Source: a virus
Lineage: Duplodnaviria; Caudoviricetes
Length of the DNA stretch: 57,706 bases
IMG/VR virus record: IMGVR_UViG_3300032233_002069
Location: 1 to 57,706 of that record
Reading direction: 5' to 3' (one strand)
Shown: positions 1 to 15,322 of the stretch, in pieces
How the letters are laid out: the number at the start of each line of letters is the position of its first letter
Position numbering within the stretch: position 1 is the stretch's first letter
Notes under the pieces: model-generated
Told to the model about the DNA's origin: nothing
Databases searched by the model: none
What the model saw: only the letters and a program-made list of their open reading frames with translations
Translations under genes and position numbers: made by a program

Positions 1-245
1 ATCCCCTCTAGGCGCGCGGTGGCGATACGCGCATCCACTTCGGCGGGCGTGAGGACTGGGCCATTATATTTTTTATAACTCCATTCTTCTGCCGCAAAGT
101 ACAGAAGATCATTAACTTGCCATAGTGGGGCGTCATCGTCGGCAAATACCCGCCACCAATACGGTATGCCGCCCACCCAATGCCACCCATCCCGCTCCGG
201 GTTCAGCGGCACCCCAGGCTTGCCGGGCCATCCGTTGTCGCTCAT
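1..245 (-). CDS. Small hypothetical protein, runs off the window start (MSDNGWPGKPGVPLNPERDGWHWVGGIPYWWRVF...); paralog/variant of 57331..57706
   Basis: Hand translation from ATG at 245 (overlaps TGA of the upstream gene, GGAG RBS); no stop before position 1. Confidence 0.65.
   Translation of the reverse strand, partial: MSDNGWPGKPGVPLNPERDGWHWVGGIPYWWRVFADDDAPLWQVNDLLYFAAEEWSYKKYNGPVLTPAEVDARIATARLEG
28..189. repeat. Imperfect ~160-bp direct repeat of the window end (57547..57706)
   Basis: Shared gcgcatccacttc...aaatacccgccaccaatacggtatgccgcccacccaatgccaccca with several substitutions and a 3-nt indel. Confidence 0.9.
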
Positions 246-256
246 TCCTTTTCTCC
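237..256 (-). repeat. Gene-junction motif GGAGAAAAGGAATGAGCGAC, copy 1
   Basis: Exact 20-mer also at 479..498 and 57326..57345. Confidence 0.9.
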
Positions 257-487
257 TATAGGTTTGATTTTCTCAAACAGTGGGCAATCAGTGTGGATGG
301 CATCTGTCCTGTTGATAACTCCACCATCTGGCTTTGATTGGATTGCCCGAAACCAATAAAAAGCCTTCGGTATAACCGGCACTTTATACTCAAAAGTACA
401 CCGCCCATCGCCGCTTGGATGTTTGCGGCCAGACTTTGTTGTTTTCCACTTTGCCCTATTGCACGTGAGGCAACTTTCGTCGCTCAT
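242..487 (-). CDS. Small Cys-rich hypothetical protein (CxxC...C...C)
   Basis: ORF track; ATGA overlaps at both ends. Confidence 0.7.
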   Translation of the reverse strand: MSDESCLTCNRAKWKTTKSGRKHPSGDGRCTFEYKVPVIPKAFYWFRAIQSKPDGGVINRTDAIHTDCPLFEKIKPIGEKE

Positions 488-498
488 TCCTTTTCTCC
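479..498 (-). repeat. Gene-junction motif, copy 2
   Basis: Exact 20-mer; 24 nt identical with the copy at 57326. Confidence 0.9.
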
Positions 499-681
499 CA
501 GCACCGCGCGCGTTTCAGGTTTCAGTGATTGCCAATCGCCCCGGCTGATGTACTTGGCCATGTCATGCAGGGCTTCACGCAGCATCCCATTCTCTTCCAG
601 CAGCAGCCTTGCTTCGGCTTTCGCTTCCACTGTCTCAGCAGTCACGCTGCTGGTGTTGTGTCCCTCGATCTTCATGATCAT
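484..681 (-). CDS. Small hypothetical protein (short coiled coil, ends LGEKE)
   Basis: ORF track; GGAGG RBS. Confidence 0.7.
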   Translation of the reverse strand: MIMKIEGHNTSSVTAETVEAKAEARLLLEENGMLREALHDMAKYISRGDWQSLKPETRAVLGEKE

Positions 682-690
682 TCCTCCCTA

Positions 691-1197
691 TCAATTCACG
701 TTTCTTGCGGAGTGTATGCACTCGACAAGCGAATTTACTATTGCATTGGTTCCGGATAGCGAGATGGTCCAGGTCCTCTCGTTTGTTCTGGGGAACGAGA
801 TATACATCGTGTGACCGAATCTAAATTGATTCTCGAATCGAGGGATATGATTGACGGTCATGTTCCATTCGAGCGTGTCGAGAGTGTTCGACACTGCCGG
901 AGCATTCCAGTGGATGTTGCCATCAATCCTCAGCACGACATCAGTCTCAAATCCGGATCTCATGCGCCATCTCGGATCCACCACATGAAATATGATGCGA
1001 GGATTGTTCTGGATCCACTTCATCATGAAATGGCGACCATCTCGATCGTCGTAAACATCGACGCCACATACCAAATTGTTGTTGGTCGTCCGGGCGACGA
1101 ATGAGGTCCAATTACCGCGTCTCTCCAGAGTCGCAGCATCTTGGGCTAGAGCTGGTGCTGCACTCAGCAGAGCAGCAATCAATAGCTTTCTGATCAT
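691..1197 (-). CDS. Exported protein with signal peptide, loosely IalB-like
   Basis: MIRKLLIAALLSAAPALA-QDA signal peptide; GNW...C...SLSGTNAIVNSLVEC pattern. Confidence 0.55.
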   Translation of the reverse strand: MIRKLLIAALLSAAPALAQDAATLERRGNWTSFVARTTNNNLVCGVDVYDDRDGRHFMMKWIQNNPRIIFHVVDPRWRMRSGFETDVVLRIDGNIHWNAPAVSNTLDTLEWNMTVNHIPRFENQFRFGHTMYISFPRTNERTWTISLSGTNAIVNSLVECIHSARNVN

Positions 1198-1309
1198 GTG
1201 TATATCCACCTCATTAGGAAGTGAGACAGGATGCTCGACAGCAACGTAGCGAAGAATATGACTGCCAGCACGAATGCCGCTGCCATCATCTCATCTTTAC
1301 GCTTTTCAT

Positions 1310-1531
1310 TCACGATTCGGATTCCTTATTCGCCGGGCAATTACGCAGCTTAGGACCATTCCCCCAGGGTGTGCCATCCTCTTCATAGAGCGAGATCATC
1401 GATCCCCAGGTGGTCTCGTATTGGACAACGCGTAGAATGACCTTGCCGGTTCGGTAATCGGACGATATCACCCTGGCGGGCTGACTACGCTCCGTTTCGA
1501 TGCTGCCTTGCCAATCGACTGCTACGATCAT
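1310..1531 (-). CDS. Hypothetical protein
   Basis: ORF track; fits the operon. Confidence 0.55.
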   Translation of the reverse strand: MIVAVDWQGSIETERSQPARVISSDYRTGKVILRVVQYETTWGSMISLYEEDGTPWGNGPKLRNCPANKESES

Positions 1532-1548
1532 GTGTCTTCTCCGCGATG

Positions 1549-1752
1549 TCAGAAGGATTTAAGGAACCGGCTGAGGGTAGGATTCGACTGCGCCCGAATA
1601 TCGGGATTCGGAAGCGTCCAGCATTCGCCGTTACTGTCGAGGAAGCACACCCACATCAGGTGCGATTCGGGACCGTAATCGATGAGAAAATGCGCCAGTG
1701 CTGAGCCTTTGGAGGTGTTCAATGGTATGGGCGGATTAAGCTGAAGGATCAT
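1549..1752 (-). CDS. Small phage hypothetical protein (MILQLNPPIPL...LIDYGPE...WVCF)
   Basis: ORF track; GGAGG RBS before ATG at 1752. Confidence 0.7.
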   Translation of the reverse strand: MILQLNPPIPLNTSKGSALAHFLIDYGPESHLMWVCFLDSNGECWTLPNPDIRAQSNPTLSRFLKSF

Positions 1753-1945
1753 GGTCGTGGACCTCCTTGCGATGCCTCGCACCGTCTATGTATCCGACAT
1801 AGTAGTATTCTGCCCACTCGGGCGAAGCGTCATGAGGAATCGTGTCATTGTTGCCGCACTTTCCGTCCTCGAATCCTATCAACAGAGCATTCGTTATACT
1901 GCTCGTGTCGGGTGCGGTCGGCCTGACCATTACGGGTTCAGTCAT
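1736..1945 (-). CDS. Hypothetical protein
   Basis: ORF track; overlaps neighbours. Confidence 0.55.
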   Translation of the reverse strand: MTEPVMVRPTAPDTSSITNALLIGFEDGKCGNNDTIPHDASPEWAEYYYVGYIDGARHRKEVHDHDPSA

Positions 1946-2231
1946 TATACATTCCTTCCAGCCTATCGAGCATCATGTCGCACAGCATCCGCGTGTATTT
2001 GAGGTCGTGCATAGCGGTATCGTCCGCGCCATTCGCCCTGTTGGTCATATATTTGGTCAACACGAACAGCACCTCTTTCAGGGTCTTACTCTGAGAGCTG
2101 TCGGCCATGGTGAGCAGGTTGATGCGTCTGAGACATTCGGCCATTTCGAGATCAGCGACCCGCATGGGGTTCGTCTGAGGCTCCAGCCCGACCATGTCGA
2201 TCGGGCTGGATTTGTGCCATTGCATATTCAC
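1938..2231 (-). CDS. Hypothetical protein
   Basis: ORF track; GGAGG RBS. Confidence 0.6.
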   Translation of the reverse strand: MNMQWHKSSPIDMVGLEPQTNPMRVADLEMAECLRRINLLTMADSSQSKTLKEVLFVLTKYMTNRANGADDTAMHDLKYTRMLCDMMLDRLEGMYND

Positions 2232-2239
2232 GTCCTCCC

Positions 2240-2647
2240 TTAAAGCAGCGCGCGAATAGAAGAAGATATATCGTCCAAGCTACCACCCCTAAGAATATAA
2301 TCCTTAGCCGGAGCGATTTCGCTAGCCTCGAATGCGATGTAGGCATCAGAGCCATACACCGGATCCACCTCGACCCAATGATCGACGTTCAGCTTACCAC
2401 CGGCAGCGAGACGAGCACGAACGCGATCGGCGAAGGCTTCGGCACGATCGGCAGCATCCCACACCCGACGATAATAGGGACCATCTTCCGGATCGTTAAC
2501 CAATTCGGCGGCAGGATAAGACACTTCGTGACGGAAGCGACGACCTTTAGAGGTCACGAATTGGACGAAAAAGCTCTCGAAGATCTCGGGACCATCATTA
2601 CCGCGAACTTCGAAAAGATCGGAACCGACTTCAATTTCCAGGGCCAT
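2240..2647 (-). CDS. Hypothetical protein with its own promoter (moron-like)
   Basis: ORF track; promoter at 2680..2712. Confidence 0.7.
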   Translation of the reverse strand: MALEIEVGSDLFEVRGNDGPEIFESFFVQFVTSKGRRFRHEVSYPAAELVNDPEDGPYYRRVWDAADRAEAFADRVRARLAAGGKLNVDHWVEVDPVYGSDAYIAFEASEIAPAKDYILRGGSLDDISSSIRALL

Positions 2648-2679
2648 TGTCTATCTCCACGTGTCTGAACTACAAGAGC

Positions 2680-2712
2680 ATTATAGCACAATGTTCTTGT
2701 GCTTACAATATA
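2680..2712 (-). promoter_or_regulatory. Sigma70-like promoter, repeated-motif copy (TTGTAA-17-TATAAT, extended -10)
   Basis: Read directly; conserved across copies. Confidence 0.75.
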
Positions 2713-2718
2713 CCCTCA

Positions 2719-3081
2719 TCAGCTCGATTCCTCCATGTGACGCTTACGACCTTCTTCACCCAGATAGCACCGAGACAAGCACATTTGCTGGATGCGACCG
2801 AATACCAATCCGCGCAGAGCGTCGTCTTGCGATGCGAATGGGCCGGGTGCGGTCCAAGCTCGCACCACCATGCCCACAGGGGCGCTACCACCAACATACG
2901 GAGTGTAACCAGGGGTGGTGGTTTTTAGCCAGCACACGTAACCAGCAGGCTTGCCCTTATTAGGTCCGCTCTTTAGCACTGGCAAGCTGTCGATGGCTTC
3001 CTGGCCAAAAAGCTTAACTGCGTATTGATATCCCCACTCGTCGGAGAGTTTCGCTGCCTTTTGCTCGATCTGGGCTTTCAT
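2719..3081 (-). CDS. Hypothetical protein with its own promoter (moron-like)
   Basis: ORF track; promoter at 3120..3152. Confidence 0.7.
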   Translation of the reverse strand: MKAQIEQKAAKLSDEWGYQYAVKLFGQEAIDSLPVLKSGPNKGKPAGYVCWLKTTTPGYTPYVGGSAPVGMVVRAWTAPGPFASQDDALRGLVFGRIQQMCLSRCYLGEEGRKRHMEESS

Positions 3082-3119
3082 CGTACGGTCCTGTATCTAA
3101 GGTGTTGTTACCTGAATAC

Positions 3120-3152
3120 ATTATAGCACAATGTTGTTATGCCCACAATATA
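3120..3152 (-). promoter_or_regulatory. Repeated promoter copy (TTGTGG-17-TATAAT)
   Basis: Read directly. Confidence 0.75.
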
Positions 3153-3164
3153 TTTCAGAACGAG

Positions 3165-4658
3165 CTACGTTTTGCTGCCTTTCACTGCCTCGAAGATGCT
3201 CTCTTTACGCTCCAGCGCGCGAGCGATAGCGTAATCGCGGTCATTGCTCACGAGGTCGATGACAGTGGTCTGACCCACCTGATTCACACCCCTGTTACGT
3301 TCTTCGCATTGGCTCCGGTCGTCGAGCGAATAAGTGTTCTCGTAGAAGACTGTGTGCAGACAGGGGTTCGTCTTATTGCCCATCAGCATATGACCATACT
3401 TGGTAGCTCGGATCTGGCCAATTATCACCCGACAGGCCGGGTCGTTATTGAAACGATTCTTCTCCTCGATCACGCTCCTGCTGTTCGAGTGGTGCCAGCC
3501 ATCGTCGCGAATGAAGGCCGGATTGAAGCGCTGCAAGACTCGACCGAGTAGGTCCATCGAGGGCCGATAATGAGCCAGCACGACCAGCTTCTGCCCTTCT
3601 GGGATCTCGTTTTCGAGTATGTATTCGATCTCTTTAGCTCGCGGTGGAGTGGACTCCGGATCAATGAAATGGGCGAACCTATTCTCGTCGTATACGAATC
3701 CGGACGCTATCTGTTGGAGTTTCAGCAGCTGAGTGATGACCTGATCGGCGGTGACGAATGCATCATTCAGCAGAGCCACGAAATCCTGATCCATCTGCTT
3801 GTACAGCGCCAGCTGCTTGGGCGTCATGTCCACCCAGCGCTTCGCGTAATCCGGGCTATCGATATTCGCCCAGTCTCGCTTACTGGCGAACCAGCTGCAG
3901 CGACTCAGCATCTCTTGCAGGCGCGGAGCCGAGTCTTTGTTGATACCCACCACCTGCTTGCCCATGTATCCGCCCATCCGGCAGAAGGCATTCTTAAACA
4001 CGACCGGCGACAGACCATTCGCTTCGCCCATAAATCGCATCTGCGTCCACAGGTCGTGCGGTCCTTGCGTCATGGGCTTGCCGCTCAGGCACCGAGTCAT
4101 CTTCGCGACTTTCCCAGCCATCATGACTGCTCTTGAAGTCTTGCTGCTCGGGTTCTTAATCCAGATGCTCTCGTCGGCGATTATCATGGCGCCGGATGTC
4201 CAATCCGCGATTTCGCGAGCGACGGGTCCTTGCGCCAGGGCTTCGTAATTCAGCACGAAAGCTCCCGCACTGGACTTTTTCAGAATGCCGCGATGAATGT
4301 CCTTGGTCGTGATGGGCTTCGGGACTATTGGCGCCTTTTTATCGATCGCCTCCTTTTCCCAATCGCCTACGAATTTATTCGGCGAGAGTATGACGAATTT
4401 ATTGGTCAGTCCATCCCTTGCGGCCAGAGCCATTTCAGCCAGGGCGACGCTGGTCTTACCGAGTCGCATTTCGAGGAAGTGTCCCCAGCCATAGGCTGGG
4501 GCTAAGGCGCTCCGAATGGCAGTAGGACTCAAGTCGCCATTCGGCTTATAGGCACTGACTCCGAAATATGAGCGGGATAGTGCCTCTAATTGGACCACAC
4601 GGGGTTCGCATTCGAGCGGCCAGTCTTTCTCGGTAGCATAGGTTAAGCTGCGTACCAT
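3165..4658 (-). CDS. SNF2-family (SF2) helicase
   Basis: EMRLGKT (Walker A), IADES (Walker B), LSGKP, QLLKLQQIASGF, RSQCEER. Confidence 0.85.
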   Translation of the reverse strand: MVRSLTYATEKDWPLECEPRVVQLEALSRSYFGVSAYKPNGDLSPTAIRSALAPAYGWGHFLEMRLGKTSVALAEMALAARDGLTNKFVILSPNKFVGDWEKEAIDKKAPIVPKPITTKDIHRGILKKSSAGAFVLNYEALAQGPVAREIADWTSGAMIIADESIWIKNPSSKTSRAVMMAGKVAKMTRCLSGKPMTQGPHDLWTQMRFMGEANGLSPVVFKNAFCRMGGYMGKQVVGINKDSAPRLQEMLSRCSWFASKRDWANIDSPDYAKRWVDMTPKQLALYKQMDQDFVALLNDAFVTADQVITQLLKLQQIASGFVYDENRFAHFIDPESTPPRAKEIEYILENEIPEGQKLVVLAHYRPSMDLLGRVLQRFNPAFIRDDGWHHSNSRSVIEEKNRFNNDPACRVIIGQIRATKYGHMLMGNKTNPCLHTVFYENTYSLDDRSQCEERNRGVNQVGQTTVIDLVSNDRDYAIARALERKESIFEAVKGSKT

Positions 4659-5173
4659 GTGATTTCTTTTTCAGCCTCTTTTATGATCCTGCTCACGAAA
4701 TCCTCGACATCCGCAGCAGTGCAGTCTGCTCCCAGCGAATCGATAGCCTTTTCGAGAAGCTTGGTGATCTCGCGCCGGAGCTTGGTTAAACGAGTATTAC
4801 CCATGCTCTCTTCCTCAGTCAGCCATACAACCGCATCCAACAGGTCAGCTATTTTGACCAGCTTCTTGGTCAGACTGGATGTGGCCGAGCTTTCGTCCAT
4901 CATCCAATGCTTTATGGCTTTCTCGGCGCTATCGTAATCGGAGAGACGCCTTTTGAGAGGGCTGGGTATGTCACCCGTGAAGGCTTCCGCCATGTCGTGG
5001 ACAAGCGCGTAAGACAGCGCTTCTGCCGTTTCTTCTGACGATAGTCCCATAGTGTCACACATGCTCTTCGTGTAGAGGGCGACATAATAGGAATGCTCAG
5101 CGACAGACTGATTGCGTATCTTCGGCACGATCGCCCACCGCTGGACGTACGATAGTCTCCTAGATCCTTTCAC
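4643..5173 (-). CDS. datZ: HD-domain dATP triphosphohydrolase DatZ
   Basis: RW...QSVAEHSY...VHDMAEAFTGDIPSP...KIADLLD HD/YfbR-like motifs; next to purZ. Confidence 0.85.
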   Translation of the reverse strand: MKGSRRLSYVQRWAIVPKIRNQSVAEHSYYVALYTKSMCDTMGLSSEETAEALSYALVHDMAEAFTGDIPSPLKRRLSDYDSAEKAIKHWMMDESSATSSLTKKLVKIADLLDAVVWLTEEESMGNTRLTKLRREITKLLEKAIDSLGADCTAADVEDFVSRIIKEAEKEITWYAA

Positions 5174-5475
5174 TGTTCGACGTCCTCTTTCACATCCGGC
5201 AATTCGTCGAGTGCAACGCTGGTGATGATCATGGCAAAGTTCGCAATGTCGGCGCCTTCGAGCAGGATCTCGGCATAGCTCTGCTCGTGCATGGCTTGCC
5301 TCAGCTCATCGACCTCCTCCACCATTCGGAGAAGAGCCTCCGATAGGCTGAGGTCCTCCCACTTGCCCTTATGCTTATTCTTGCGGAGCTTGTACACCAT
5401 CGCGCTCCAGAACCGGCTGAGGTCCTTCGCAATGGGCGTCAGCTCGTCCGGAATATAGACATTGATGTGAGGCAT
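5170..5475 (-). CDS. mazZ: MazG-like nucleotide pyrophosphohydrolase (MazZ candidate)
   Basis: EEVDEL...EGADIANF MazG acidic motif; between datZ and purZ. Confidence 0.65.
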   Translation of the reverse strand: MPHINVYIPDELTPIAKDLSRFWSAMVYKLRKNKHKGKWEDLSLSEALLRMVEEVDELRQAMHEQSYAEILLEGADIANFAMIITSVALDELPDVKEDVEQ

Positions 5476-6593
5476 TACCGGGTCCCCTCGACAGTGACGA
5501 CATCAGTCGTGGACGGACCGAACCCCAGCAGCAGGAGAGGCTTCTTGTATTGACCAGCCGACAGGTTCACCAAATTGTCGAGGTCGTCGTTGATGTTGCT
5601 GAGCATTGCCTCCAGGTCATGCTTCTTCATGTAATTGGCGAAGTTCAGCAGGATCGTGTCGGGCCTATTGACGGACACCGCTTCCACGAATTGCATGCGC
5701 GACCACGAGAAAATCCGGCGCACCCGCTTGGTGACGGTCGTGTATTCCGGTTCTTGTCCGACTTCTTCCCAGGTAAGCTCGCGCTGATCCGGGTAGCAAT
5801 CGCCGCTGCTGTTCTCGGTATTGCCGACACGAATCGGGTAGGTGCGAACCACCATCATGACCTTGTTAAGCGTCTGAAGGGGCAAGCGAGCGTCGGCCAT
5901 GGCTTGGCCCACAGTGCATTCGCGGTGGGTGCAGTGAGGATAGAACCCGCTATTGATGCCTAGGCTAAAGCCCTGGGACGTCTCGACAAACACCACGCCA
6001 GCATATGGGTCGAAGGCGCGCATCGCCCAGGAGGGAGTCATCTTGTCGGGGATGTCGCCCAAAGGCAGATTGTCGCCATATACGCGACCGGTGCGAAGGA
6101 TACGGGCTGCTGCAGCCGGTCCGGTGCCTTTGCCGGTGGACGCGATGCGCTTCACCAAATCGGTGTTGGTGCTCTTGTCAGCGTCGGTGACTTCGGCTGC
6201 GTGAGGGTGTATCGCCACCAGATCTTGAGCGTGTTCGGACAGCGCTTTCCACTCGGTCAGCAGCTCATCCATAGCGATAACTGCACCGCCATTCAGATAG
6301 GTGTAAGTAGGACGACCCAGATGGTCGAGCACTGAGGTGGCAATCGGGATCTGCTTGTTGATCCACTTTCCGCCCGGAATAATCGCCGTATGGCCACTGT
6401 TTGGACCAGCATTCGACATGATGCCGTCGATAGGGAGAGCGGTCTCCTTGGCATAAGCCGCCAGCAGCGCTGCTGCTACGCCTTTGCCGGTCGATCCGTA
6501 TTGACCGTCCACCAGCACATAAGAGCCGGTGGTTCTGAACCATCCCGATTCGTATAACGCCTTCACTACGTCGCGATTAATGATCTCAGCCAT
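5475..6593 (-). CDS. purZ: PurZ, N6-succino-2-amino-2'-deoxyadenylate synthase (PurA paralog)
   Basis: DGQYGSTGKG (Ser at the PurA catalytic Asp), NSGHT, QGFSL..FYPHCTHRECT, YPIRVG, TTVTKRVRR, LNFANY in place of PurA TKLD. Confidence 0.93.
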   Translation of the reverse strand: MAEIINRDVVKALYESGWFRTTGSYVLVDGQYGSTGKGVAAALLAAYAKETALPIDGIMSNAGPNSGHTAIIPGGKWINKQIPIATSVLDHLGRPTYTYLNGGAVIAMDELLTEWKALSEHAQDLVAIHPHAAEVTDADKSTNTDLVKRIASTGKGTGPAAAARILRTGRVYGDNLPLGDIPDKMTPSWAMRAFDPYAGVVFVETSQGFSLGINSGFYPHCTHRECTVGQAMADARLPLQTLNKVMMVVRTYPIRVGNTENSSGDCYPDQRELTWEEVGQEPEYTTVTKRVRRIFSWSRMQFVEAVSVNRPDTILLNFANYMKKHDLEAMLSNINDDLDNLVNLSAGQYKKPLLLLGFGPSTTDVVTVEGTR

Positions 6594-7017
6594 ATGTCTT
6601 CTCCAGGATCAGTGGCGTTAAACGCCGGGTTAACCGGTTCTTCTCAACCGGAATTACGAAATCAGGGTCGTGCTTCAGATGGGTAAAGCGAGCGTCGCAG
6701 ACCTGCAACGAATGAAGCTTGCCCTTCGTGTCTTTAAATCCGACCAGGACTACCGAATGTTCGAATTTGCTCAATTCGTCGTGTTGCTTCGGAGTCACAC
6801 CCGTCAGGACCGGTCTTTCATTGTGGCCCAGCGCTGCGTCGCGTGTGTGGATCTTAACTTCTGCCACCAACAGCACACCGCGAGCACTACGTGCGGGCAT
6901 GATCCGGAGAAGGAGATCGGGCATCCCCACCATGAACCGGTGAGACATCTTCCGCCCATACCCACCTTCTTCTGCGATCCATTTCAGGATGTTCGACTGA
7001 AGCTTAAGTTCTTTCAT
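6586..7017 (-). CDS. VRR-NUC / resolvase-like PD-(D/E)xK nuclease
   Basis: E..LQ..I...GMPDL...EVK...TPKQ. Confidence 0.75.
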   Translation of the reverse strand: MKELKLQSNILKWIAEEGGYGRKMSHRFMVGMPDLLLRIMPARSARGVLLVAEVKIHTRDAALGHNERPVLTGVTPKQHDELSKFEHSVVLVGFKDTKGKLHSLQVCDARFTHLKHDPDFVIPVEKNRLTRRLTPLILEKTYG

Positions 7018-7330
7018 GCTTGGGCAGCTCCCGATTATCCTCGCCTACGTTGCGCTGCCTCAGGACCGCCAGCATGATCAGCGAAGCTGCAGCATGGTAG
7101 AGGTGGCTGATGCCGGTCTCCTGGTCGTTCTCGCGACCGCGCCACCACTCCCAGGTGTGACGCATGGTGGCAGAAAATAGGCGCCCCCATGTCATCCCCC
7201 GTTCCCAATTCCGGTCGCCATATTTCTCCGCACCACGGGTAAACACTTCGGCCAAATAATACATCGCGTCAGGCGGTATCAGATCGAAGCGCACCTTGCC
7301 CTGATCGAATTTCTTTCCCTTGTCCATCAC
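7004..7330 (-). CDS. DUF5664-type dATP/dGTP diphosphohydrolase domain protein
   Basis: KFDQGKVRFDLIP...GAEKYGDRNWERG...RH...DQETGISHLYHA. Confidence 0.8.
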   Translation of the reverse strand: MMDKGKKFDQGKVRFDLIPPDAMYYLAEVFTRGAEKYGDRNWERGMTWGRLFSATMRHTWEWWRGRENDQETGISHLYHAAASLIMLAVLRQRNVGEDNRELPKHERT

Positions 7331-7542
7331 TTCAATCCATTCTTATCGGCCAGCCATTCCGGCACCTTAATGAACACACGAGAGCCAAGCTTGTAATCCT
7401 CTTCGCCCTCTTCGGACTCCACTTTGATCTGGCTCTTGGGTAGCCACACCTCGTCCGTCATGAAGTCGCTCTGGAACAGCACAGCCTTTGCCGTGATGTG
7501 CTTGATAAATCCGTTCAGAGTGACTGTATCCTGCTTTCTCAC
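7327..7542 (-). CDS. Small phage protein (TAKAVLF...VWLPKSQI...VPEWLA)
   Basis: GTGA overlap with polymerase stop; recognisable pattern. Confidence 0.7.
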   Translation of the reverse strand: MRKQDTVTLNGFIKHITAKAVLFQSDFMTDEVWLPKSQIKVESEEGEEDYKLGSRVFIKVPEWLADKNGLK

Positions 7543-9398
7543 TTCTTGCCTCCATACGTCGCGATAGACCAATTCTCGCCACCACCGACATCCAGCTTGA
7601 AAGGCACCCGGAGATTGAATGGGTCCGACTGGACATCGACGAACATATTTCTGAGATCCGCCATAATGCGGGTGCTACGCTCATCATCCGCGCCCTGCCA
7701 AAGAAAGCTGTCGTGGATAGTCATCAGCAGTTGCACCGTGTCGCCTTCTGCCTCCAGCATACGGTCGGCATCGAGCAGCTTCTTCTTGACGATATCAGCA
7801 TTTCCGCCCTGAATGATGCGGCTGGTGGCTTTGTAAGCGAATCGGGCATCATCGAGCCTGCAGACCCTGCCCAGCAGCGTAAACACGTAGCCACGCGAGA
7901 GCATGGCCTGCTTGGCTTGGCGCTGAAAGCCGGGTATACCAGGAAAGACTGCCATCCAAGCATCGAACATTTCGCGAGCTTTGTCCTCGCTCCATCCCAT
8001 GTGCTGGGAGAAGCTCTTCTGCTGCATCCCGGTGAGCAGCCCCATGTTCATGCGCTTGGCTACCGTGTCGCGATCGACACCCAGCATGTCTGCTGCGACG
8101 CGATGCATATCGCGTGGTGGCTCGGAGCTGTAGCCCTCCACCAGGGCCGGTTCACGAGCGTAGTGGGCAAATAGGCGAGGTTCGCATTGGCTATAATCGC
8201 CCTCGAAGATCGTCATGCCTTCGTCAGGCACGAAGATCGACCGGAAGAGCTTGCCCAATTCCTTATTGTGCTTCGGTACCTGCTGCATATTTGGATTGGA
8301 GCAGGAGAATCGCCCGGAGATGGTGCCGAAACCGTCGATAGCGGTAGCATGAAGCGAGGGGTGCACTCGCCCCTTGAAAGCATGCCGCTCCATCAGTGGA
8401 TTAAGAAAGCTGTTGATGAGATTGGTGGATTCGCGGATGGCGACGATGCGCCTCCCCTCCTCGAAAGTGCTGAGCCACTTTTCGGTGAAGGAGGGCTGAC
8501 CCTGAGGAAAGCGCTTGCTAGGTTCGGTCAAAGGCCAATCGGTGTGGCCCAAGTCCTCGCAATATTTCCGCATATCGGAAGGCGACCTCACATTGAAGCC
8601 TTCCGGCAAACAAGACACGAAATCGGAGATGCGCCCTTCAAGCTCGCGCCTCACTTCGTCCGCCCTATTCGAATCGATGCGAATACCACGACGCTCGATA
8701 CGGAACACGGTCCGGATGAGATCCGACTCTAGCTGCCAGACCCTGCTCATATCCACCGGCTGAGAATCCCGGTCGCGACGCTGGTCTTGCCACACTTCGA
8801 ATGTGGTGATGCCGTCACCGGCTGCGTAATCCATCGCCAGAGCGTCATTACCTGGGAGACGCCAGAAATGTGCCATCTGGTCGCGCTTGGCTGGACCGCC
8901 AAATTTCTGCGCTATGTGTGCATAAAGCTCGTCGCCCTTCTTCGCGGTCACTCCGCGCCGGGTCGCGCAATCACTCAGGCCGAATCCGTTAGCATGCTCG
9001 TCGAGCAACGCTTCGTTGGTCTGGGTGCATTCAAGCTGCCGGTTGAGAAACACACCTGCGTTGGCCGAGAAATGCAAATCGAACTTGAGATTGTGACCGA
9101 TCGTCAGCAGCCCTCGCCGGTCCCGCTCAGCGAAAGCAGCAGCCAGCTCCTTCTCGAAACGATGAATGACGATAGCGTCTTCGGTCGAGGACAACGGCGG
9201 CACATTGATATCGAGGAGGTTCCCCCCTCCCCCGTGTCTAATCGGGATATACACGGAAGAGGAGGGATCAGGGGTAAACACGTATCCTATAGGCTGATTA
9301 CGCTTCCAATCGACACCAGATGTTTCGGTGTCGAACGCCAGAACAGGGGCCTCTGTCACCCATCTCAGCGCTCTTTCCGCGTCTTCAGCTATAGTCAT
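7539..9398 (-). CDS. dpoZ: Family A DNA polymerase with 3'-5' exonuclease, DpoZ candidate
   Basis: Exo FDTET, HNLKFD, YAAGD; pol SGRFSCSNPNMQQ, DYSQCEPR, AKRMNMGLLTG, IQGGNAD, TIHDS; inside the purZ cluster. PolA call is strong, the dpoZ label is contextual. Confidence 0.8.
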   Translation of the reverse strand: MTIAEDAERALRWVTEAPVLAFDTETSGVDWKRNQPIGYVFTPDPSSSVYIPIRHGGGGNLLDINVPPLSSTEDAIVIHRFEKELAAAFAERDRRGLLTIGHNLKFDLHFSANAGVFLNRQLECTQTNEALLDEHANGFGLSDCATRRGVTAKKGDELYAHIAQKFGGPAKRDQMAHFWRLPGNDALAMDYAAGDGITTFEVWQDQRRDRDSQPVDMSRVWQLESDLIRTVFRIERRGIRIDSNRADEVRRELEGRISDFVSCLPEGFNVRSPSDMRKYCEDLGHTDWPLTEPSKRFPQGQPSFTEKWLSTFEEGRRIVAIRESTNLINSFLNPLMERHAFKGRVHPSLHATAIDGFGTISGRFSCSNPNMQQVPKHNKELGKLFRSIFVPDEGMTIFEGDYSQCEPRLFAHYAREPALVEGYSSEPPRDMHRVAADMLGVDRDTVAKRMNMGLLTGMQQKSFSQHMGWSEDKAREMFDAWMAVFPGIPGFQRQAKQAMLSRGYVFTLLGRVCRLDDARFAYKATSRIIQGGNADIVKKKLLDADRMLEAEGDTVQLLMTIHDSFLWQGADDERSTRIMADLRNMFVDVQSDPFNLRVPFKLDVGGGENWSIATYGGKK

Positions 9399-9427
9399 GT
9401 TAGCCCCTAGTCGTTATAATGGTAGAA

Positions 9428-10294
9428 TCAGTATTCGCCGCTGGTAGAACCACCGGTCGAGCTTGGCTCCGCGTCCTCACCGGCAATATCCGCCTCATCG
9501 CGCGATTTAAGACCGCCGAAACGCTTCTGCAAATCGACTGCCTGCTTAAATTCGCCCTCGCTCGCCCAGCCAGCACTCGTGAACTTCACGTTGAAGTAGC
9601 TGCCTTCCTGGCCCTGCTCTTCGACCGCTTCAGCGCGGAAGCGAAGCGCTTGCATTGGGCGACCGGCATTGCCGTGAAGCATGATCTTCGGGTAAAGCTC
9701 GCGGCGCACTTTCTTTACTTGACTCCGCGCGAACGTGAAGAATGTCGGGCCAAGATCCGGAAAATCTGGCAGGATTACCAGATGCTCATACATGAGGACC
9801 GCAGCAGGGGGGCTATCTGGGTCATCCGGATTGAAAGTGCCGAACTGTGCCAGCCCGGATTCCTCGACCGTAGGGCGGAGGTTCCAGACAACTGGCTTCT
9901 TTACATTCTTAAGCTTAACTTCGAAGCTGCCCTCGGACGGCGCCCAATTCACACCGTCCTCAGCGCGAGCCAGGACACCGCGACCGTCCGTGAGCGGCGC
10001 CATGAGAAGATACTTCTTCCGATTGGCGCAGATGATGAAGTCCACGGAGCGTCCGAGAGGCATGTCGAAGCCGGTGTGCCAGAAGACACCGGGTGTAGCA
10101 TCATCGAATGTGCTCACCGCCTCGCTTACCGCTTGGAGAAGGCGAATGGACGGCAGCGCGACGTCAGATTGGTCCACACCCGACAGCTGACTCCCTTGGG
10201 CCGCGCCCTGCAGGTAAGCTGGGATGTTGGACGATGCCGCAGCGACCGGCAGATTTTCCGGTTCAGCAGCACGAGTTACAGCGTTTTTAGCCAT
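9428..10294 (-). CDS. Putative ssDNA-binding/recombination protein
   Basis: DVALPSIRLLQAVS...PG motif, acidic C-terminal tail ending in Y; position in the replication module. Confidence 0.5.
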   Translation of the reverse strand: MAKNAVTRAAEPENLPVAAASSNIPAYLQGAAQGSQLSGVDQSDVALPSIRLLQAVSEAVSTFDDATPGVFWHTGFDMPLGRSVDFIICANRKKYLLMAPLTDGRGVLARAEDGVNWAPSEGSFEVKLKNVKKPVVWNLRPTVEESGLAQFGTFNPDDPDSPPAAVLMYEHLVILPDFPDLGPTFFTFARSQVKKVRRELYPKIMLHGNAGRPMQALRFRAEAVEEQGQEGSYFNVKFTSAGWASEGEFKQAVDLQKRFGGLKSRDEADIAGEDAEPSSTGGSTSGEY

Positions 10295-10308
10295 GATTGA
10301 GGTCCTCC

Positions 10309-10809
10309 TTAGACCTTGGTGCGAGACATGTGTTGAATGGTGGACAGCTTAAACAGCTCAGCGGGCAGATCTTGCCCTTGTTCGAGCACATACTCGGAAG
10401 CGAACTTCGACAATGTGCTAGAATTCACAGTGGGGACGATGATATCGCCGTGACCTTCTTCGCGCAGCCACTCCATGGCGCGCTCCTTATCGGTCATCGA
10501 CGCGGTAATCCGGGTGTTTACCGTAAATCGTGCACCCAGCTCCTTCATCGTGAGGGTGGATACACCCTCCTCCTGGAAGCGTTGCGGCAAGACCGTTACG
10601 CTCAAAAGCTGCAGCGCTTTTGACATAGCCTTGCCCACTTCCTCTATCCGGTCGTCGAGATTGCGAATCGCGTCATACAACGCGCATGTGTTGGCGAGAG
10701 TGCCAGCTTCCTTGATCGTGTCGGGCAAGGAAGAGACGAGAAGTTCGACCTCCTCTGATGTCTCCCGGATTCGCTCACTGAGATTCGAGAATTTCGCCAC
10801 GTAGTCCAT
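10309..10809 (-). CDS. Replication-module protein of unknown function
   Basis: ORF track; GGAGG RBS. Confidence 0.7.
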   Translation of the reverse strand: MDYVAKFSNLSERIRETSEEVELLVSSLPDTIKEAGTLANTCALYDAIRNLDDRIEEVGKAMSKALQLLSVTVLPQRFQEEGVSTLTMKELGARFTVNTRITASMTDKERAMEWLREEGHGDIIVPTVNSSTLSKFASEYVLEQGQDLPAELFKLSTIQHMSRTKV

Positions 10810-10846
10810 TTGTCCTCCTATAAAGGCCGCTTATCGGCCTATCCAC

Positions 10847-10875
10847 AATAGATCACACAGAGCTTTGCGGCACAA
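10847..10875 (-). promoter_or_regulatory. Degenerate copy of the repeated promoter (TTGTGC-17-TCTATT)
   Basis: Same spacing and TGTG extended -10; upstream of the replication/Z operon. Confidence 0.45.
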
Positions 10876-10902
10876 TCCCCTTGTCGCGTAAGCATCTTGT
10901 AT

Positions 10903-11310
10903 TCACAGAGGGTTTCCGTCGCGGTCTTCGACCGGCTGGGAGAAGTCGTATTCGGTCATCACCTTCAGCCACGAATCCGGCGCATCGTGCCATACCCTCT
11001 TGCCGGTCTCGTCCATGGCATACAGACCACCGCGACGACGAGCGGCACCGCGCAGCGAATTGCCGATATTCATCGCCACTCGACCGCGACCCTTGGGCGT
11101 CGCCAGGGCAAAATCGATTCGATACTTGTCGGTCTGCTTAATGTTGTTAAGCTCGGCCATGGTGAGGAGCTTGTTCCAGCTCACGGCACTGACAATTTCA
11201 GCGTCCACGTAAGGCGGCAGATCCTCATCGTTTGCCGGAATCTCGACACGCTCCGACATCACGATTCGAGTGTGAGTGGCCAGGAATTCTTCGAACCAAT
11301 CATTGGTCAT
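10903..11310 (-). CDS. Hypothetical protein, shares a domain with 16859..17644
   Basis: GRVAMNIGNSLRG vs GRARMSIGNILRG. Confidence 0.7.
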   Translation of the reverse strand: MTNDWFEEFLATHTRIVMSERVEIPANDEDLPPYVDAEIVSAVSWNKLLTMAELNNIKQTDKYRIDFALATPKGRGRVAMNIGNSLRGAARRRGGLYAMDETGKRVWHDAPDSWLKVMTEYDFSQPVEDRDGNPL

Positions 11311-11312
11311 GG

Positions 11313-13706
11313 TTAATACTCCGCTTTTTCGATGTTGGGAACATTAGCTTCGGAGGTGTCGCTTAGTCCTCCAAATACTTTACCGTACTTTCGCTCCAGA
11401 TGTTCCAATATTCTCTCCATCGATGGGAAAGTGTACAGCCTCACCCTGCGACGTTGGGTGATATTCGTGTAAGAGTCGGTGACTGATACCGACCTTTGAC
11501 CGATCGATTCGATAGACGAATCGGGGAAGACACCCCTGATGGTCAACCAGACATTGCCGGTGTGCAGTGGCTTGCCTCGCTCGCGCACATACCGCCGGAA
11601 ATCCTCTTCTATCGCGGGCAGGTGAATGGTGTCCGGCCATCTGTCGGCGATCAGCATATTGGAGGTGGAATACTCGGCCTCTTTATCCATCTGGAAGCAC
11701 TGCCACCAATACTGGTGTACTTCTCCTGACAACGGGAAGCCATTTTGGAGCCTTTCGTTGAGCCACGACACCTCTAGTGGCACCCCAACCCCCTGCAGCA
11801 CTCGTTTGGCCTCCGTCGCGTAAGGACGACGTATCGAGGATTTATCATACTTCCGGTCCATGAGATACTTCGCGATCTTGGGCAGATTGTCCGCCGTCCA
11901 TTGGCGCAGGTTCTGCCAGTAGTTATTGTCCGAACTCCGCGCACCGGATACGTGCAGCACCGTGAAGCGACGCTCAGCCGGTGTGGCATCGATGAAGAGA
12001 GCAGCAGTCTCCTCGTTCGATGTAAACACGAACCGCATGTGATTGGGCTTCACGTAAGGATTTACGAACTTGGGTTCGATTCGCATCGTCTGGTCAGTCA
12101 CGAGGGCTTTTAGTCGAGCAGCAGTGTCGCGCTGGTAGCTATGCAATGCCTCGTCGCATTGGAGCAGCAACTTGTTGTCCACCAGCTGATTGAAGCGCTC
12201 GGTGAGGCTAGTGATCGAATTGGTCTGACCGTAGTGAGTCGGGCCTATGATCGCTCCTAGGACGCACTCGCCGAGAAAGGTCTTGCCTGCGCCCGGCATG
12301 CCGACCAGAACTAGCGAGGTGCCGGGTTTCTTCGCCGGGTCCTGCAAGACGTCAGCGCACCAATCGAGTACCCAATTCGCGGCTTTGTCGTCCTTATCGG
12401 CGACGACCTCGTGAACGTAGTCGAGGAAGGGTCTCACTTCGTCCTCGGTCACGTCCTCTGCTGGATCCACCTTGAATCCGCGCCACTGATTCACGTAGGC
12501 GCAGTCGTCGTGCTCGATCACGGTCTCGGTCGAGGAGGGATCGAATGTGACGCCAAATACGCGTCCGACCGCGAGCGACGAAAATAGGATGCTGGACACG
12601 GGGATCTTCTTGCCACCCAGCGTGAGCGATCTCCCGCCCATGCTGTTCTTGGCCTGCTCGCGTGTCATCCAGAACTGGCTCATCCCCCGCTCTACCATGT
12701 CGAGATCGATCAGCACCCCTTGACCATACCAAATGCGGAAGCGCTCGGCCAGCTCTTCGAATTCGAGTGTTCCGGCATCGTCGGCCATGAGGATATAGAG
12801 GTTCCTCACCACCTGAGGGCCGACTGGGCCGATCAGCTCAGCCAGACGGGTGGCACCGATCGCCTTCGATGAAGGGTCGCGGTCGAGCTTCCTCCAGGTG
12901 GAGTGTAGATTCATCACTCGCGATTTCACGTCGGCAGGATCGTCGTCGGCCAGAGTGGTGATGGTGCGTAGCAGACGCTCTGCGCGATCGAGTGCCTCGG
13001 ACGATCGCGGCGCCTCGCTGCCTGAGATCTCGGATGCCGAGAGGACGACCGAATACATGCGCCACAGAGCACCAGCCAGGGCCAAACTCATGTCGTTGCG
13101 AACGCCTTTCACCCAATACCTGGACAGCATAGCGGCAGCTGCTGCCATCCGCACTGCGTCCACCAGCTCGGGTGCGCGAACTTGGGTCGGCGACACGGAA
13201 GTGTCGAGCGTGTCCCAGGTATAGACTTCGCCTTCCGGGTGTATGCTGCCGGGCAGCACCGATACGAAACCCGCCGACTTCGTGCCTCCACGAACCTCGA
13301 CCGATAGACTGGTGTCCTCCACTTTCAGCGCCTTGATAGCGCGCAGCAGAGTCCCGAACTCGTCCCGGTTAAAATCCTGGTCCAGCACATAGAGCCTGTG
13401 GGAACGGGGTTTGCTGGCGCGACCCCAAACCAGGGAAGACGCTGGCAGACATAGGTCGAGTGCTTCGATGATCAGTGGCTCGAAAGTGTCCACATCAACA
13501 TCCACGATGCGACCGAACAGGTGGACCGCGATGTTGTCGTCGCCCAGATTGGTGAGGATCTTCTCGGGCATAGACGCTCGTCGCGGGTCCCAGTCACTAG
13601 TCGGCGCCTTCTGCCCAGCACGAATGCGCACCGGGTTGAGAGAGTAGGCTTTGATGACTTCGAGTGTGCGCTGCAAATGGTGGTCGCGACTGTTATTAGC
13701 TGTCAC
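11313..13706 (-). CDS. Primase-polymerase / SF3-like helicase fusion (DUF5906/NrS-1 type)
   Basis: N-terminal VDVDVD...SHRLY...LPGSIHP; GMPGAGKT, LLQCDE, FTSN, ERRF. Confidence 0.85.
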   Translation of the reverse strand: MTANNSRDHHLQRTLEVIKAYSLNPVRIRAGQKAPTSDWDPRRASMPEKILTNLGDDNIAVHLFGRIVDVDVDTFEPLIIEALDLCLPASSLVWGRASKPRSHRLYVLDQDFNRDEFGTLLRAIKALKVEDTSLSVEVRGGTKSAGFVSVLPGSIHPEGEVYTWDTLDTSVSPTQVRAPELVDAVRMAAAAAMLSRYWVKGVRNDMSLALAGALWRMYSVVLSASEISGSEAPRSSEALDRAERLLRTITTLADDDPADVKSRVMNLHSTWRKLDRDPSSKAIGATRLAELIGPVGPQVVRNLYILMADDAGTLEFEELAERFRIWYGQGVLIDLDMVERGMSQFWMTREQAKNSMGGRSLTLGGKKIPVSSILFSSLAVGRVFGVTFDPSSTETVIEHDDCAYVNQWRGFKVDPAEDVTEDEVRPFLDYVHEVVADKDDKAANWVLDWCADVLQDPAKKPGTSLVLVGMPGAGKTFLGECVLGAIIGPTHYGQTNSITSLTERFNQLVDNKLLLQCDEALHSYQRDTAARLKALVTDQTMRIEPKFVNPYVKPNHMRFVFTSNEETAALFIDATPAERRFTVLHVSGARSSDNNYWQNLRQWTADNLPKIAKYLMDRKYDKSSIRRPYATEAKRVLQGVGVPLEVSWLNERLQNGFPLSGEVHQYWWQCFQMDKEAEYSTSNMLIADRWPDTIHLPAIEEDFRRYVRERGKPLHTGNVWLTIRGVFPDSSIESIGQRSVSVTDSYTNITQRRRVRLYTFPSMERILEHLERKYGKVFGGLSDTSEANVPNIEKAEY

Positions 13707-13735
13707 GTGTTAACTCCCGACCCGGTGTATTGAGA

Positions 13736-13972
13736 TTAGTGCCAGACTATGCTTTCGGCTTCGCCCACTTCAGAGGGGTGCACCAAGACGATATGAGCGA
13801 AACCGCCTCCATCGTCGGCCTCGCATAACTTGCGATTGATATCCTCCGCTGGAAGGCCGGTCTTATATTCCAGGATCATCGCAAGCTCGCTGTAGTAGAA
13901 GCCCTTCTCTTGAAGGCACAGCTCCTCGAACACGAGATCCGCCAATTCGAGCAGCTCTTTATCCGTGATCAT
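13736..13972 (-). CDS. Hypothetical protein
   Basis: ATGA overlap with upstream ORF. Confidence 0.55.
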   Translation of the reverse strand: MITDKELLELADLVFEELCLQEKGFYYSELAMILEYKTGLPAEDINRKLCEADDGGGFAHIVLVHPSEVGEAESIVWH

Positions 13973-14283
13973 CCGCCGTGCTCCTTCTTGGACGCGATCG
14001 CCAGACGGATGTCGTCGAGCGTGTCTTTCAGCATGGCTGCTTCGTCCCGATTCTTGCGACGCATCGCGCCAATCAGCAGGCACCATGCCTCCAGTATCAC
14101 GACGCTGATCTCACCATCGTGCGGATCAGCATAGGCATTGTCGAGGTCGAAGATGTGACGCAGCATCATCTCCTGATTCGGCGAGAATCCAAGCTCATTG
14201 CAGACGGCACGAATATCGCGCTCCATAGAGGGATCGGCCTTGATGTAGCGGCGCATCAGCTGGGCGTGGTTCATGTGGCTCAT
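13969..14283 (-). CDS. Hypothetical protein
   Basis: AAGGAG RBS, promoter upstream. Confidence 0.65.
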   Translation of the reverse strand: MSHMNHAQLMRRYIKADPSMERDIRAVCNELGFSPNQEMMLRHIFDLDNAYADPHDGEISVVILEAWCLLIGAMRRKNRDEAAMLKDTLDDIRLAIASKKEHGG

Positions 14284-14307
14284 CGATATCTCTCCTTATC
14301 TTTGAGT

Positions 14308-14340
14308 ATTGTATCACAAGGCTCTTAGGCACACAATATA
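14308..14340 (-). promoter_or_regulatory. Repeated promoter copy (TTGTGT-17-TACAAT)
   Basis: Read directly. Confidence 0.7.
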
Positions 14341-14679
14341 CTTGGTGTTCAAGAATGTGCAGATATGCTGGCTGGCTCATCAGTGACCGGGAGCCTCCCG
14401 GCCAGACCCGGCATGCCGGGTTTCGCCTTTCATTTGTCGGCTGGTTTCGGCTCGTCGAGGTCCTTGAACTCGCAGCGATAGAGGTCGTTGTGCTTGTCGT
14501 AGAAGGCTCGTGCCGCGCGCTCGTTCTTAAATTTGGCGCGAGCTATGACCAGACGGTCATTCATGACTACCACTTCGTACATCTTCATCCTCCTCAGGTC
14601 AGACCAATTGCAAATGCGAAGCCATACATGACGGCTCCGAACAACACGATCTCAGCGATCTTTTCGATGGTCGCGCGCA

Positions 14680-15317: not shown

Positions 15318-15322
15318 TTCGA

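Follow-up and report, generated by a model that had tools for sequence, protein, structure and literature searches.

The gene set purZ-mazZ-datZ is defined in PMC8342488 as the Z-cluster of phages whose genomes contain 2-aminoadenine (Z), and the title of that paper reports that the S-2L triad is sufficient in Escherichia coli. The described Z phages are siphoviruses or podoviruses, according to the relevant parts of PMC8599892 and PMC8342488. Here we analyze IMG/VR record IMGVR_UViG_3300032233_002069, a stretch of 57,706 bp that is the whole record and is called the window below. Judging from its sequence, we consider it likely that the window, as the ~58-kb genome of a contractile-tailed, uncultivated freshwater phage, encodes a complete, functional-looking Z-DNA module and that Z-DNA is the likeliest state of this genome.

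The only cultured relative of this predicted Z module is found in Ochrobactrum phage vB_OspP_OH (OH; Wolominvirus), a podovirus of 41 kb. OH shares with the window the gene order primase, gp33-like, gp34-like, PolA, small nuclease-like open reading frame (ORF), PurZ, MazZ-2, DatZ, and helicase, and the proteins are 43% (PolA), 45% (PurZ), 48% (MazZ-2), 36% (the helicase that follows datZ), and 34% (DatZ) identical. A different gene occupies the position of the DUF5664 gene of the window. OH also differs in having podovirus-type structural genes, with no phrog_6-type baseplate genes in view, and its virion module is unrelated to that of the window.

A first-pass annotation of the window had placed a complete Z pathway of six contiguous genes at positions 4643 to 9398. 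All six are present in this interval, contiguous and on the minus strand. They include purZ-mazZ-datZ in the canonical order, which is common to the window, phiVC8, S-2L, OH, Burkholderia phage Bm1, and SH-Ab 15497, plus an extra DUF5664 gene and a linked polA. The features of this region are as follows:

4643 to 5173, minus strand: DatZ, HD-domain dATP triphosphohydrolase (PF12917 YfbR-like, 4e-21; phrog_7076 "dATP triphosphohydrolase," 9e-33; PDB S-2L DatZ 6zpa, 2e-10)
5170 to 5475, minus strand: MazZ-2-type MazG-like nucleotide pyrophosphohydrolase of 101 amino acids (aa), between purZ and datZ (assigned by homology and fold)
5475 to 6593, minus strand: PurZ, predicted 2-aminoadenylosuccinate (dSMP) synthetase of the ATP type (phrog_1211, 6e-64; PDB matches; Pfam Adenylsucc_synt)
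5631 to 5645, minus strand: PurZ motif NFANY, residues 317 to 321, in the guanine-specificity columns K331-D333 of E. coli PurA (alignment)
6480 to 6497, minus strand: PurZ P-loop GSTGKG, residues 33 to 38, with Ser34 at the PurA catalytic Asp13 (alignment)
6586 to 7017, minus strand: probable PD-(D/E)xK (Hjc/VRR-NUC-like) nuclease, 143 aa
7004 to 7330, minus strand: stand-alone DUF5664 domain (PF18909, "dATP/dGTP diphosphohydrolase N-terminal," 8.8e-33; phrog_801, 8e-41)
7327 to 7572, minus strand: 81-aa protein of phrog_8389 (1.4e-10)
7539 to 9398, minus strand: family A DNA polymerase with 3'-5' exonuclease, of the OH-like PurZ-linked clade (PF00476, 5e-51; PF01612, 4e-6)
8028 to 8060, minus strand: PolA motif B, AKRMNMGLLTG, residues 447 to 457, with Met452 at the Klenow F762 column and Thr456 at the Y766 column

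The best PDB matches of the window PurZ were the PurZ proteins of phiVC8 (6fm1, 4e-51) and S-2L (7odx, 1e-42), and PurA of E. coli and other bacteria matched at about 1e-7. The Pfam label of the protein is merely Adenylsucc_synt, as might be expected of an ordinary adenylosuccinate synthetase acting as an auxiliary purine-metabolism gene. Several results argue against this alternative. We aligned the window PurZ with 15 named references and with the PurZ of a capsid relative, G017, at residue positions listed as functionally validated in section 8 of bioRxiv 10.1101/2025.10.22.683976. In phiVC8 numbering, the window protein has the PurZ-specific residues S14, T262, F295, Y298, P233, Y244, W252, G256, and S273; at the phiVC8 F12 column it has Tyr, as do S-2L and Bm1. 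Replacement of the catalytic Asp13 of PurA by Ser is given as a PurZ feature in parts of PMC12884076 and PMC8515928. The same Ser was found in 80/80 IMG/VR PurZ loci, which are the best 80 of 119 relatives from a PurZ profile search; a single-protein PurZ scan of IMG/VR had returned zero relatives. The guanine-specificity residues K331 and D333 of E. coli PurA are missing, their columns being occupied by Leu and Asn. F318 and Y321 of the window align with F295 and Y298 of phiVC8 PurZ, to which section 8 of the same preprint assigns adenine-stacking roles.

A quick IQ-TREE analysis of 44 rows placed the window PurZ inside the PurZ clade (39 rows, SH-aLRT 93) and outside PurZ0 of phages Wayne, Ghobes, and Hiyaa. 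It adjoins an 81%-identical metagenomic protein in an environmental clade that has OH at its base. PurZ0 is a GTP user, and its P-loop is GSEAKG, versus GSTGKG in the window. The first-pass annotation had singled out GSTGKG and NFANY as marks of an ATP-type enzyme distinct from PurZ0 and had proposed that grouping with PurA would speak against this call. Both motifs were located, at residues 33 to 38 and 317 to 321, and the P-loop, F295/Y298, and the position in the PurZ clade all agree with the ATP-type assignment. With datZ and mazZ as neighbors in addition, we consider the chance that the gene encodes an ordinary PurA to be negligible. The window PurZ is thus assigned to the ATP-type PurZ clade, PurZ0 being excluded, and its nucleotide preference is predicted. 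One sentence of PMC12884076 (section 24) reverses the preferences of PurZ and PurZ0, whereas the introduction of the same paper states that PurZ uses ATP; the conflict is probably a slip of word order.

A further PurA homolog with PurZ-like residues was seen in the cultured Flavobacterium phage MaF61 (PQ858689.1, 168 kb; L106, positions 259 to 1602). This 447-aa protein has Ser at the Asp13 column (GSSGKG), T262, F295, and Y298, and it forms a very long branch beside the PurZ clade.

The predicted DatZ of the window keeps S-2L residues W20, I22, and P79 in aligned columns, W20 and I22 corresponding to window W13 and I15. Section 10 of bioRxiv 10.1101/2025.10.22.683976 attributes to W20 a role toward the sugar and to I22 a role toward the adenine. 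A rule stated in PMC8342488 is that MazZ is encoded between purZ and datZ, the position of the 101-aa MazG-like protein here. This protein is 48% identical over 84 aa (E 4e-21) to OH gp33, which is MazZ-2 in PMC8342488 (Czernecki et al.), and it aligns with phiVC8 p26 and ZP6 gp22. Residues E54, E57, E73, and D76 are invariant in 24 homologs and would correspond to E35, E38, E50, and E53 of S-2L. The AlphaFold2 (AF2) model (pLDDT 94) has a four-helix, MazG-like, all-alpha fold; its top structural matches were AF_0060 (2p06, TMt 0.72) and the Thermotoga maritima MazG-related protein 2yxh, at Foldseek E values of 0.04 to 0.2, and a Pfam PRA-PH match (0.0045) fell below the cut-off.

The stand-alone DUF5664 domain can be aligned to Wayne gp51 and, in SH-Ab 15497 gp40 (MazZ), to the N-terminal domain. 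Wayne DUF5664 turns dATP, dGTP, and dUTP into dNMPs, as reported in part of PMC12884076. Freshwater viromes described in bioRxiv 10.1101/2025.10.22.683976 contain contigs, enriched by restriction resistance, on which PurZ, HD_3, DUF5664, and PolA colocalize. As for the nuclease of the first-pass annotation, the gene exists at 6586 to 7017, and its identity as a nuclease is only a lead because the protein has no Pfam or PHROG match. It is 27% identical (E 2e-4) to OH gp30, a "putative nuclease" at the same position; the families represented among its ESM Atlas neighbors are VRR_NUC, Hjc, and RecU; and its sequence contains the motif GMPDLL...EVK.

The genome that carries this cluster is divided by strand. 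Minus-strand genes lie at ~0.7 to 17.6 kb and 55.3 to 57.7 kb, and plus-strand genes for packaging, virion, and lysis lie at 18.5 to 55.2 kb. The latter include the following:

18494 to 55248, plus strand: contractile-tail module encoding virion, packaging, and lysis functions (TerS, TerL, portal, fibers, GH108 lysin, and others; 60 to 94% protein identity with the PurZ-less relatives G001 to G003, described below)
25267 to 27093, plus strand: 608-aa NUDIX-protease fusion (N-terminal NUDIX, 3e-16; prohead-protease/DUF2213-like region, phrog_6216, 4e-150)
27730 to 28752, plus strand: major capsid protein (MCP), virion module
31652 to 33244, plus strand: sheath (phrog_205, 4e-28)
33257 to 33703, plus strand: tube, virion module
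34400 to 36274, plus strand: SLT tape measure, virion module
37469 to 38545, plus strand: baseplate hub (phrog_196, 2e-22)
39478 to 40893, plus strand: J-type wedge (phrog_6, 8e-25; PF04865 Baseplate_J, 24.1 bits versus a 21.1 cut-off)

The contractile-tail genes named in the first-pass annotation were thus recovered as sheath (phrog_205), hub (phrog_196), and wedge (phrog_6/Baseplate_J). The virion module is of the contractile-tailed type, a tail predicted here from its genes.

The two parts of the genome have different relatives. Through a capsid search of IMG/VR we collected the best 80 of 228 relatives, and 69 capsid-related records were examined for PurZ. Three of the relatives, G001, G002, and G003 (57 to 61 kb, CheckV completeness 100%, terminal repeats in G002 and G003), have a virion arm that is 36 to 94% identical to that of the window at the protein level (MCP 94%, TerL 69 to 83%, sheath 61 to 78%, J-type wedge 65 to 74%). 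From TerL onward, 30 window ORFs match G002 at 36 to 94% identity. The 15 window ORFs that lie from 2719 to 17644 had no match in G001, G002, or G003, and these genomes, unlike the window, are without PurZ, DatZ, and PolA. G002 has a different set: for replication a Prim-Pol/DUF3987 protein, UvrD and DEAD helicases, a PDDEXK nuclease, and AAA_24, and in addition ParB_N and a TAGT-type glycosyltransferase.

PurZ was present in 1/69 capsid-related records and in 0/11 of those at least 90% complete, and PurZ was also missing from five capsid relatives binned to genomes, in which the PurA-like matches were weak. The first-pass annotation had spoken of a Z myovirus lineage, and these counts do not bear that out. 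The sole PurZ carrier is G017 (L093; 39 kb, 72% complete), which resembles the window in its virion (MCP 91%, TerL 73%) and has the same module architecture at 33 to 41% identity. Its PurZ (~7718 to 8773, minus strand) has a PurZ0-like GSEAKG P-loop but also F295 and Y298, and it forms a deep, long branch between PurZ0 and PurZ; it may be an intermediate type. The G017 PolA groups with a different subclade than the window PolA.

Searching from the side of the module gave a different set of genomes. Among the 80 PurZ loci, helicase and PolA homologs were each found in 68, the gp34-like gene in 57, the gp33-like gene in 53, DatZ in 46, MazZ in 42, the 81-aa protein of phrog_8389 in 8, and DUF5664 in 3. 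The phrog_6 wedge was found in 0/40 PurZ records of at least 20 kb, including 0/17 at least 90% complete, with the window, Bm1, and a second Burkholderia phage, BCSR129, positive as controls. We adopted phrog_6 as the wedge marker because PF04865 matched the window alone and missed the Bm1 control, whereas phrog_6 caught all three controls; PF04984, tried as a contractile-tail marker, matched 0/5 records, Bm1 among them, and was uninformative. The genome is a mosaic of a Z/replication arm (~3.1 to 13.7 kb) and a myovirus virion module, and this type of arm is common in environmental genomes of ~40 to 47 kb without a baseplate wedge gene. The predicted Z module was thus evidently swapped into a myovirus lineage, and the arm swap appears to have happened twice in this virion lineage, once each in the window and G017.

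A mosaic of this kind could also be produced by misassembly, that is, by a chimera of a podovirus-type Z replication arm and a myovirus virion module. The entirely different relatives of the two arms would fit such an origin, as would the class of the IMG/VR record, which is linear and without terminal repeats. The contigs listed from runs X2, X3, and X5 include none that bridges 15 to 19 kb, so a bridge from an independent run is missing from these lists, although coverage holes prove nothing. Other results point away from a chimera. CheckV completeness is 100%, and the window has a single set of TerL, portal, and MCP, a second structural set being absent. Logan contigs of run X1, the possible source run, tile positions 3000 to 22000 at an even depth of 7.6 to 10.8, and one of them bridges the replication arm and the terminase, spanning 15674 to 20992. 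Two further freshwater runs, each belonging to a different study, contain pieces of both modules at similar depths, mostly 95 to 99% identical, and a freshwater run of a third study contains a more diverged relative of the window, again with both arms at similar depths. G017, moreover, joins the same virion lineage to another version of the module type. The contig looks real, and we consider a chimera very improbable.

Within the covered region, one segment (15046 to 16313) reached word depths of up to 184 to 411, versus ~5 around it, in two independent freshwater runs, and contigs over it continue into unlike sequence at ~15241 to 15895. The segment is common to the window and a much more abundant entity. 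Its ORFs include 15433 to 16029 (minus strand), which belongs to phrog_5855, a family without an assigned function.

The polymerase linked to the cluster differs from those of the characterized Z phages. The window PolA has intact Exo I to III and polymerase motifs A and C. Its best matches among cultured phages are all PurZ phages, namely, OH (451 bits) and the SH-Ab, PMBT28, and Klebsiella types (222 to 248 bits), and PolA proteins of non-Z phages scored 148 to 216 bits. In a 28-row tree it fell within a clade of 18 PurZ-linked PolAs (SH-aLRT 97) that is separate from the DpoZ clade of phiVC8, SH-Ab, Bm1, and PMBT28, from Wayne, and from four non-Z PolAs, the branching between the clades being without resolution. 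OH has the motif B type of the window; its F762 column is Met and its Y766 column is Ser. Among 66 IMG/VR PurZ-linked PolAs that cover motif B, the Y766 column is Thr in 64 and Ser in 2, and the F762 column is Met in 56, Leu in 8, and Gln in 2. As Thr/Ser is fixed in 66/66, this appears to be a constrained, Z-associated PolA. We place the window PolA, by alignment and tree, in neither described DpoZ clade but in a third, PurZ-linked clade. This OH-like clade is linked to PurZ in all loci examined, which had themselves been collected with a PurZ profile.

If Z replaces A, selection on A-containing restriction sites would be relaxed, a pattern that weaker depletion of A/T-containing palindromes would match. 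We computed observed/expected palindrome counts under a maximal-order Markov model. For A/T-containing 6-mers the ratio was 0.83 in the window and 0.73 in G017, versus 0.58 to 0.62 in the PurZ-less G001 to G003; partial OH, phiVC8, and Bm1 gave 0.78 to 0.82. The difference held in the homologous virion modules (0.85 in the window versus 0.57 to 0.60 in the PurZ-less relatives). G/C-only 6-mer palindromes were depleted in all five related genomes (0.22 to 0.64). The ratio of the A/T to the G/C class did not separate PurZ carriers from noncarriers; absolute A/T-class depletion alone did.

These data bear on a further alternative, in which the cluster is real but Z substitution is partial, or the cluster mainly reshapes nucleotide pools, since the PolA is not Z selective. 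A Tyr-to-Phe change in helix O (phiVC8 F459) is the sole change common to both DpoZ clades (PMC8599892, section 13), and the phiVC8-like DpoZ has three insertions (PMC8599892, section 12). Where phiVC8, SH-Ab, Bm1, and Wayne have this Phe, the window has Thr456, and phiVC8-type fingers insertions 2 and 3 are missing from its PolA in a MAFFT alignment. Its PDB scores against Klenow (5e-45) and DpoZ (7pbk, 8e-43) are nearly equal. GTAC is still avoided (63 observed versus 142 expected), and CTCGAG, GAGCTC, and GTCGAC occur 0 to 1 times where 15 to 23 are expected. Against these points, GTAC avoidance is far weaker in the window than in the PurZ-less relatives, which have 1 to 10 sites, and Thr/Ser is invariant in the PurZ-linked PolAs. 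S-2L, moreover, is fully substituted by way of a nonselective PrimPol and DatZ, according to part of PMC8342488, and the window DatZ keeps all three S-2L specificity residues. We regard partial substitution as improbable, though less so than a chimera, and we continue to favor a Z-DNA genome.

Several observations weigh against that conclusion, beginning with the Thr456 and missing insertions of PolA and the lack of a bridging contig from runs X2, X3, and X5. Z in virion DNA, the enzyme activities, and the host steps are presumed from the gene content, and Z reads as A in sequence data. The MazZ-2 assignment is one of distant homology, and S-2L MazZ did not appear among the PDB sequence and fold matches of the 101-aa protein. 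For the sheath protein, Pfam and PDB sequence searches gave no match, and an AF2 model, for which 14 sequences were used, was of low quality (pLDDT 56; below 50 in the 180 C-terminal residues). The top Foldseek matches (TM 0.16 to 0.18) came from Agrobacterium phages Milano and 7-7-1, as entries for tail and baseplate; they are weak support because the model is poor, and alignment of the window sheath profile with the Bm1 sheath by hhalign gave no match. The palindrome contrast fits Z weakly, being one of two genomes versus three and confounded by host and possibly by another modification in the relatives (G002 has TAGT).

The gene content suggests how the module might work. After infection, DatZ would destroy dATP, while the MazZ-2-type pyrophosphohydrolase and the stand-alone DUF5664 enzyme would convert dGTP (and dATP) to monophosphates. 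PurZ would then use ATP to join dGMP and aspartate into dSMP, which host PurB and host kinases would carry to dZTP. The linked proofreading PolA would copy the genome with Z opposite T, and the resulting DNA would be shielded from many A-dependent restriction enzymes.

If Z is confirmed, Z-genomes would turn out not to depend on a single type of virion. ZTGC-DNA would be packaged and injected by a capsid and contractile tail that barely differ from those of PurZ-less relatives, a case that bears on the spread of DNA modification systems through module exchange. The Thr/Ser PolA clade, which departs from a normally invariant Tyr, is a candidate enzyme for studies of Z-selective replication and for laboratory production of Z-DNA. 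We offer a broader proposal tentatively, and with rather more doubt than belief. Z modules may be portable cassettes, such that one virion lineage (MCP 91 to 94%) packages canonical or otherwise modified DNA or, after an arm swap that occurred at least twice with deeply diverged modules, Z-DNA; the OH-like PolA (AKRxxMGxLTxM, Thr/Ser at Tyr766) would be a third, independently evolved Z-adapted replicase, whose clade is maybe larger in the environment than the two DpoZ clades. The advance is incremental because the pathway was already established and metagenomes are rich in PurZ homologs, 1724 proteins having matched at E <= 1e-10 among 8000 candidates scored.

An alphaproteobacterial host, suggested in the first-pass annotation, is plausible because of the capsid relatives and because the host of OH is Ochrobactrum. 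Capsid relatives were found on a 3.56-Mb Acetobacteraceae contig of a metagenome-assembled genome (83%) and on contigs binned as Sphingomonadaceae (91%), Rhizobiales, Stellaceae, Xanthobacteraceae, and Rhodopila. Others occurred in Paraburkholderia and Caballeronia isolates (61 to 63%) and in a Limnocylindrus bin (94%, probably a phage contig). Megablast of window positions 1 to 20000 against cultured phages gave no match, leaving the window without a close cultured relative. A tRNA search of the window found none, and there was no integrase among the window ORFs scanned, some small ORFs lying outside the scan.

The remaining features of the replication arm are these:

3165 to 4658, minus strand: SNF2/superfamily II DNA helicase at the downstream end of the Z/replication module (PF00176, 8.5e-13; phrog_62, 1e-61)
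9428 to 10809, minus strand: Pam3 gp34-like and gp33-like module partners (PF23977, 2e-22; PF23984, 1e-25)
11313 to 13706, minus strand: Prim-Pol/D5-like primase-helicase (PF09250; PF19263; phrog_1156, 3e-38)

The gp34-like and gp33-like proteins are 36% and 34% identical to their OH counterparts, and the primase shares 24% identity with the primase-polymerase of OH. The Pfam names hinted at a connection with myophage Pam3, which was rejected: the gp34-like protein matches OH alone among cultured phages, and PMC9382816 mentions neither PurZ nor adenylosuccinate. At the opposite end of the record, on the strand of the replication arm, 55272 to 55808 (minus strand) encodes a dCMP/cytidine deaminase domain (PF00383, 5e-8, above the cut-off), which might raise the dTTP supply for Z:T pairs.

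Other observations concern the virion module and its relatives. The J-type wedge has a match to a ubiquitin-E1 FCCH domain (PF16190, 2.9e-10), and the confident N-terminal part of the sheath model matches Uba1 FCCH regions in Foldseek; this FCCH-like element of the wedge and sheath is probably a decorative beta-barrel insertion. Two fiber proteins of 1054 and 845 aa (41609 to 44773 and 47461 to 49998, plus strand) contain multiple collagen-like repeats (phrog_30509 and phrog_1806), and downstream of the fibers is a family 2 glycosyltransferase with TPR repeats (52667 to 53746; 79% identity with G002 and G003). In G002 (L087), the closest of the PurZ-less capsid relatives, the protein at 18697 to 19716 has a TAGT (TET-associated glycosyltransferase) domain (2.8e-40) beside a ParB_N protein; taken together with the region 5212 to 17734, this suggests that G002 may use another DNA hypermodification. 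Tet_JBP (PF12851) had no match in G000 to G003 or G017, in a search without a positive control.

The first-pass annotation had taken a Z myovirus to be new, and a title- and abstract-level survey of the literature found no report of a PurZ or Z-genome myovirus. That premise is weakened by database entries for Bm1 and BCSR129 (66 to 68 kb; Bm1, 67.5 kb), in which PurZ, DatZ, PolA, and a small ORF already occur together with a J-type wedge. Bm1 has an annotated sheath and baseplate hub, and its contractile tail, seen by transmission electron microscopy, makes it a myovirus; the Bm1 paper lacks the terms adenylosuccinate, aminoadenine, and diaminopurine. The PurZ proteins of Bm1 and BCSR129 are 40% and 39% identical to that of the window and belong to another subclade, with BUCT555, phiVC8, and ZP6. 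Their PolA is of the phiVC8 type, in that motif B contains Leu and Phe and the insertions are present, and their virion genes are unrelated to those of the window, except for the NUDIX domain. NUDIX and protease are separate adjacent genes in Bm1, unlike the fusion in the window. With PurZ and PolA in phiVC8-like subclades and unrelated virion genes, Bm1 and BCSR129 represent an independent combination.

Among the characterized Z phages, S-2L, phiVC8, and SH-Ab 15497 agree with the window in the PurZ-MazZ-DatZ order and in the specificity residues of PurZ and DatZ. S-2L differs in having MazZ-1 and PrimPol, versus MazZ-2 and PolA in the window. SH-Ab has DUF5664 fused to DUF550, whereas the window has DUF5664 alone and a separate MazZ-2. 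The PolA of the characterized Z phages belongs to the DpoZ clade with F459, unlike that of the window. Relative to these systems, three features are new: clear module swapping within one virion lineage; a predicted stand-alone DUF5664 enzyme beside a putative MazZ-2; and a large PurZ-linked PolA clade with a Thr/Ser substitution, which alignment places outside both described DpoZ types.

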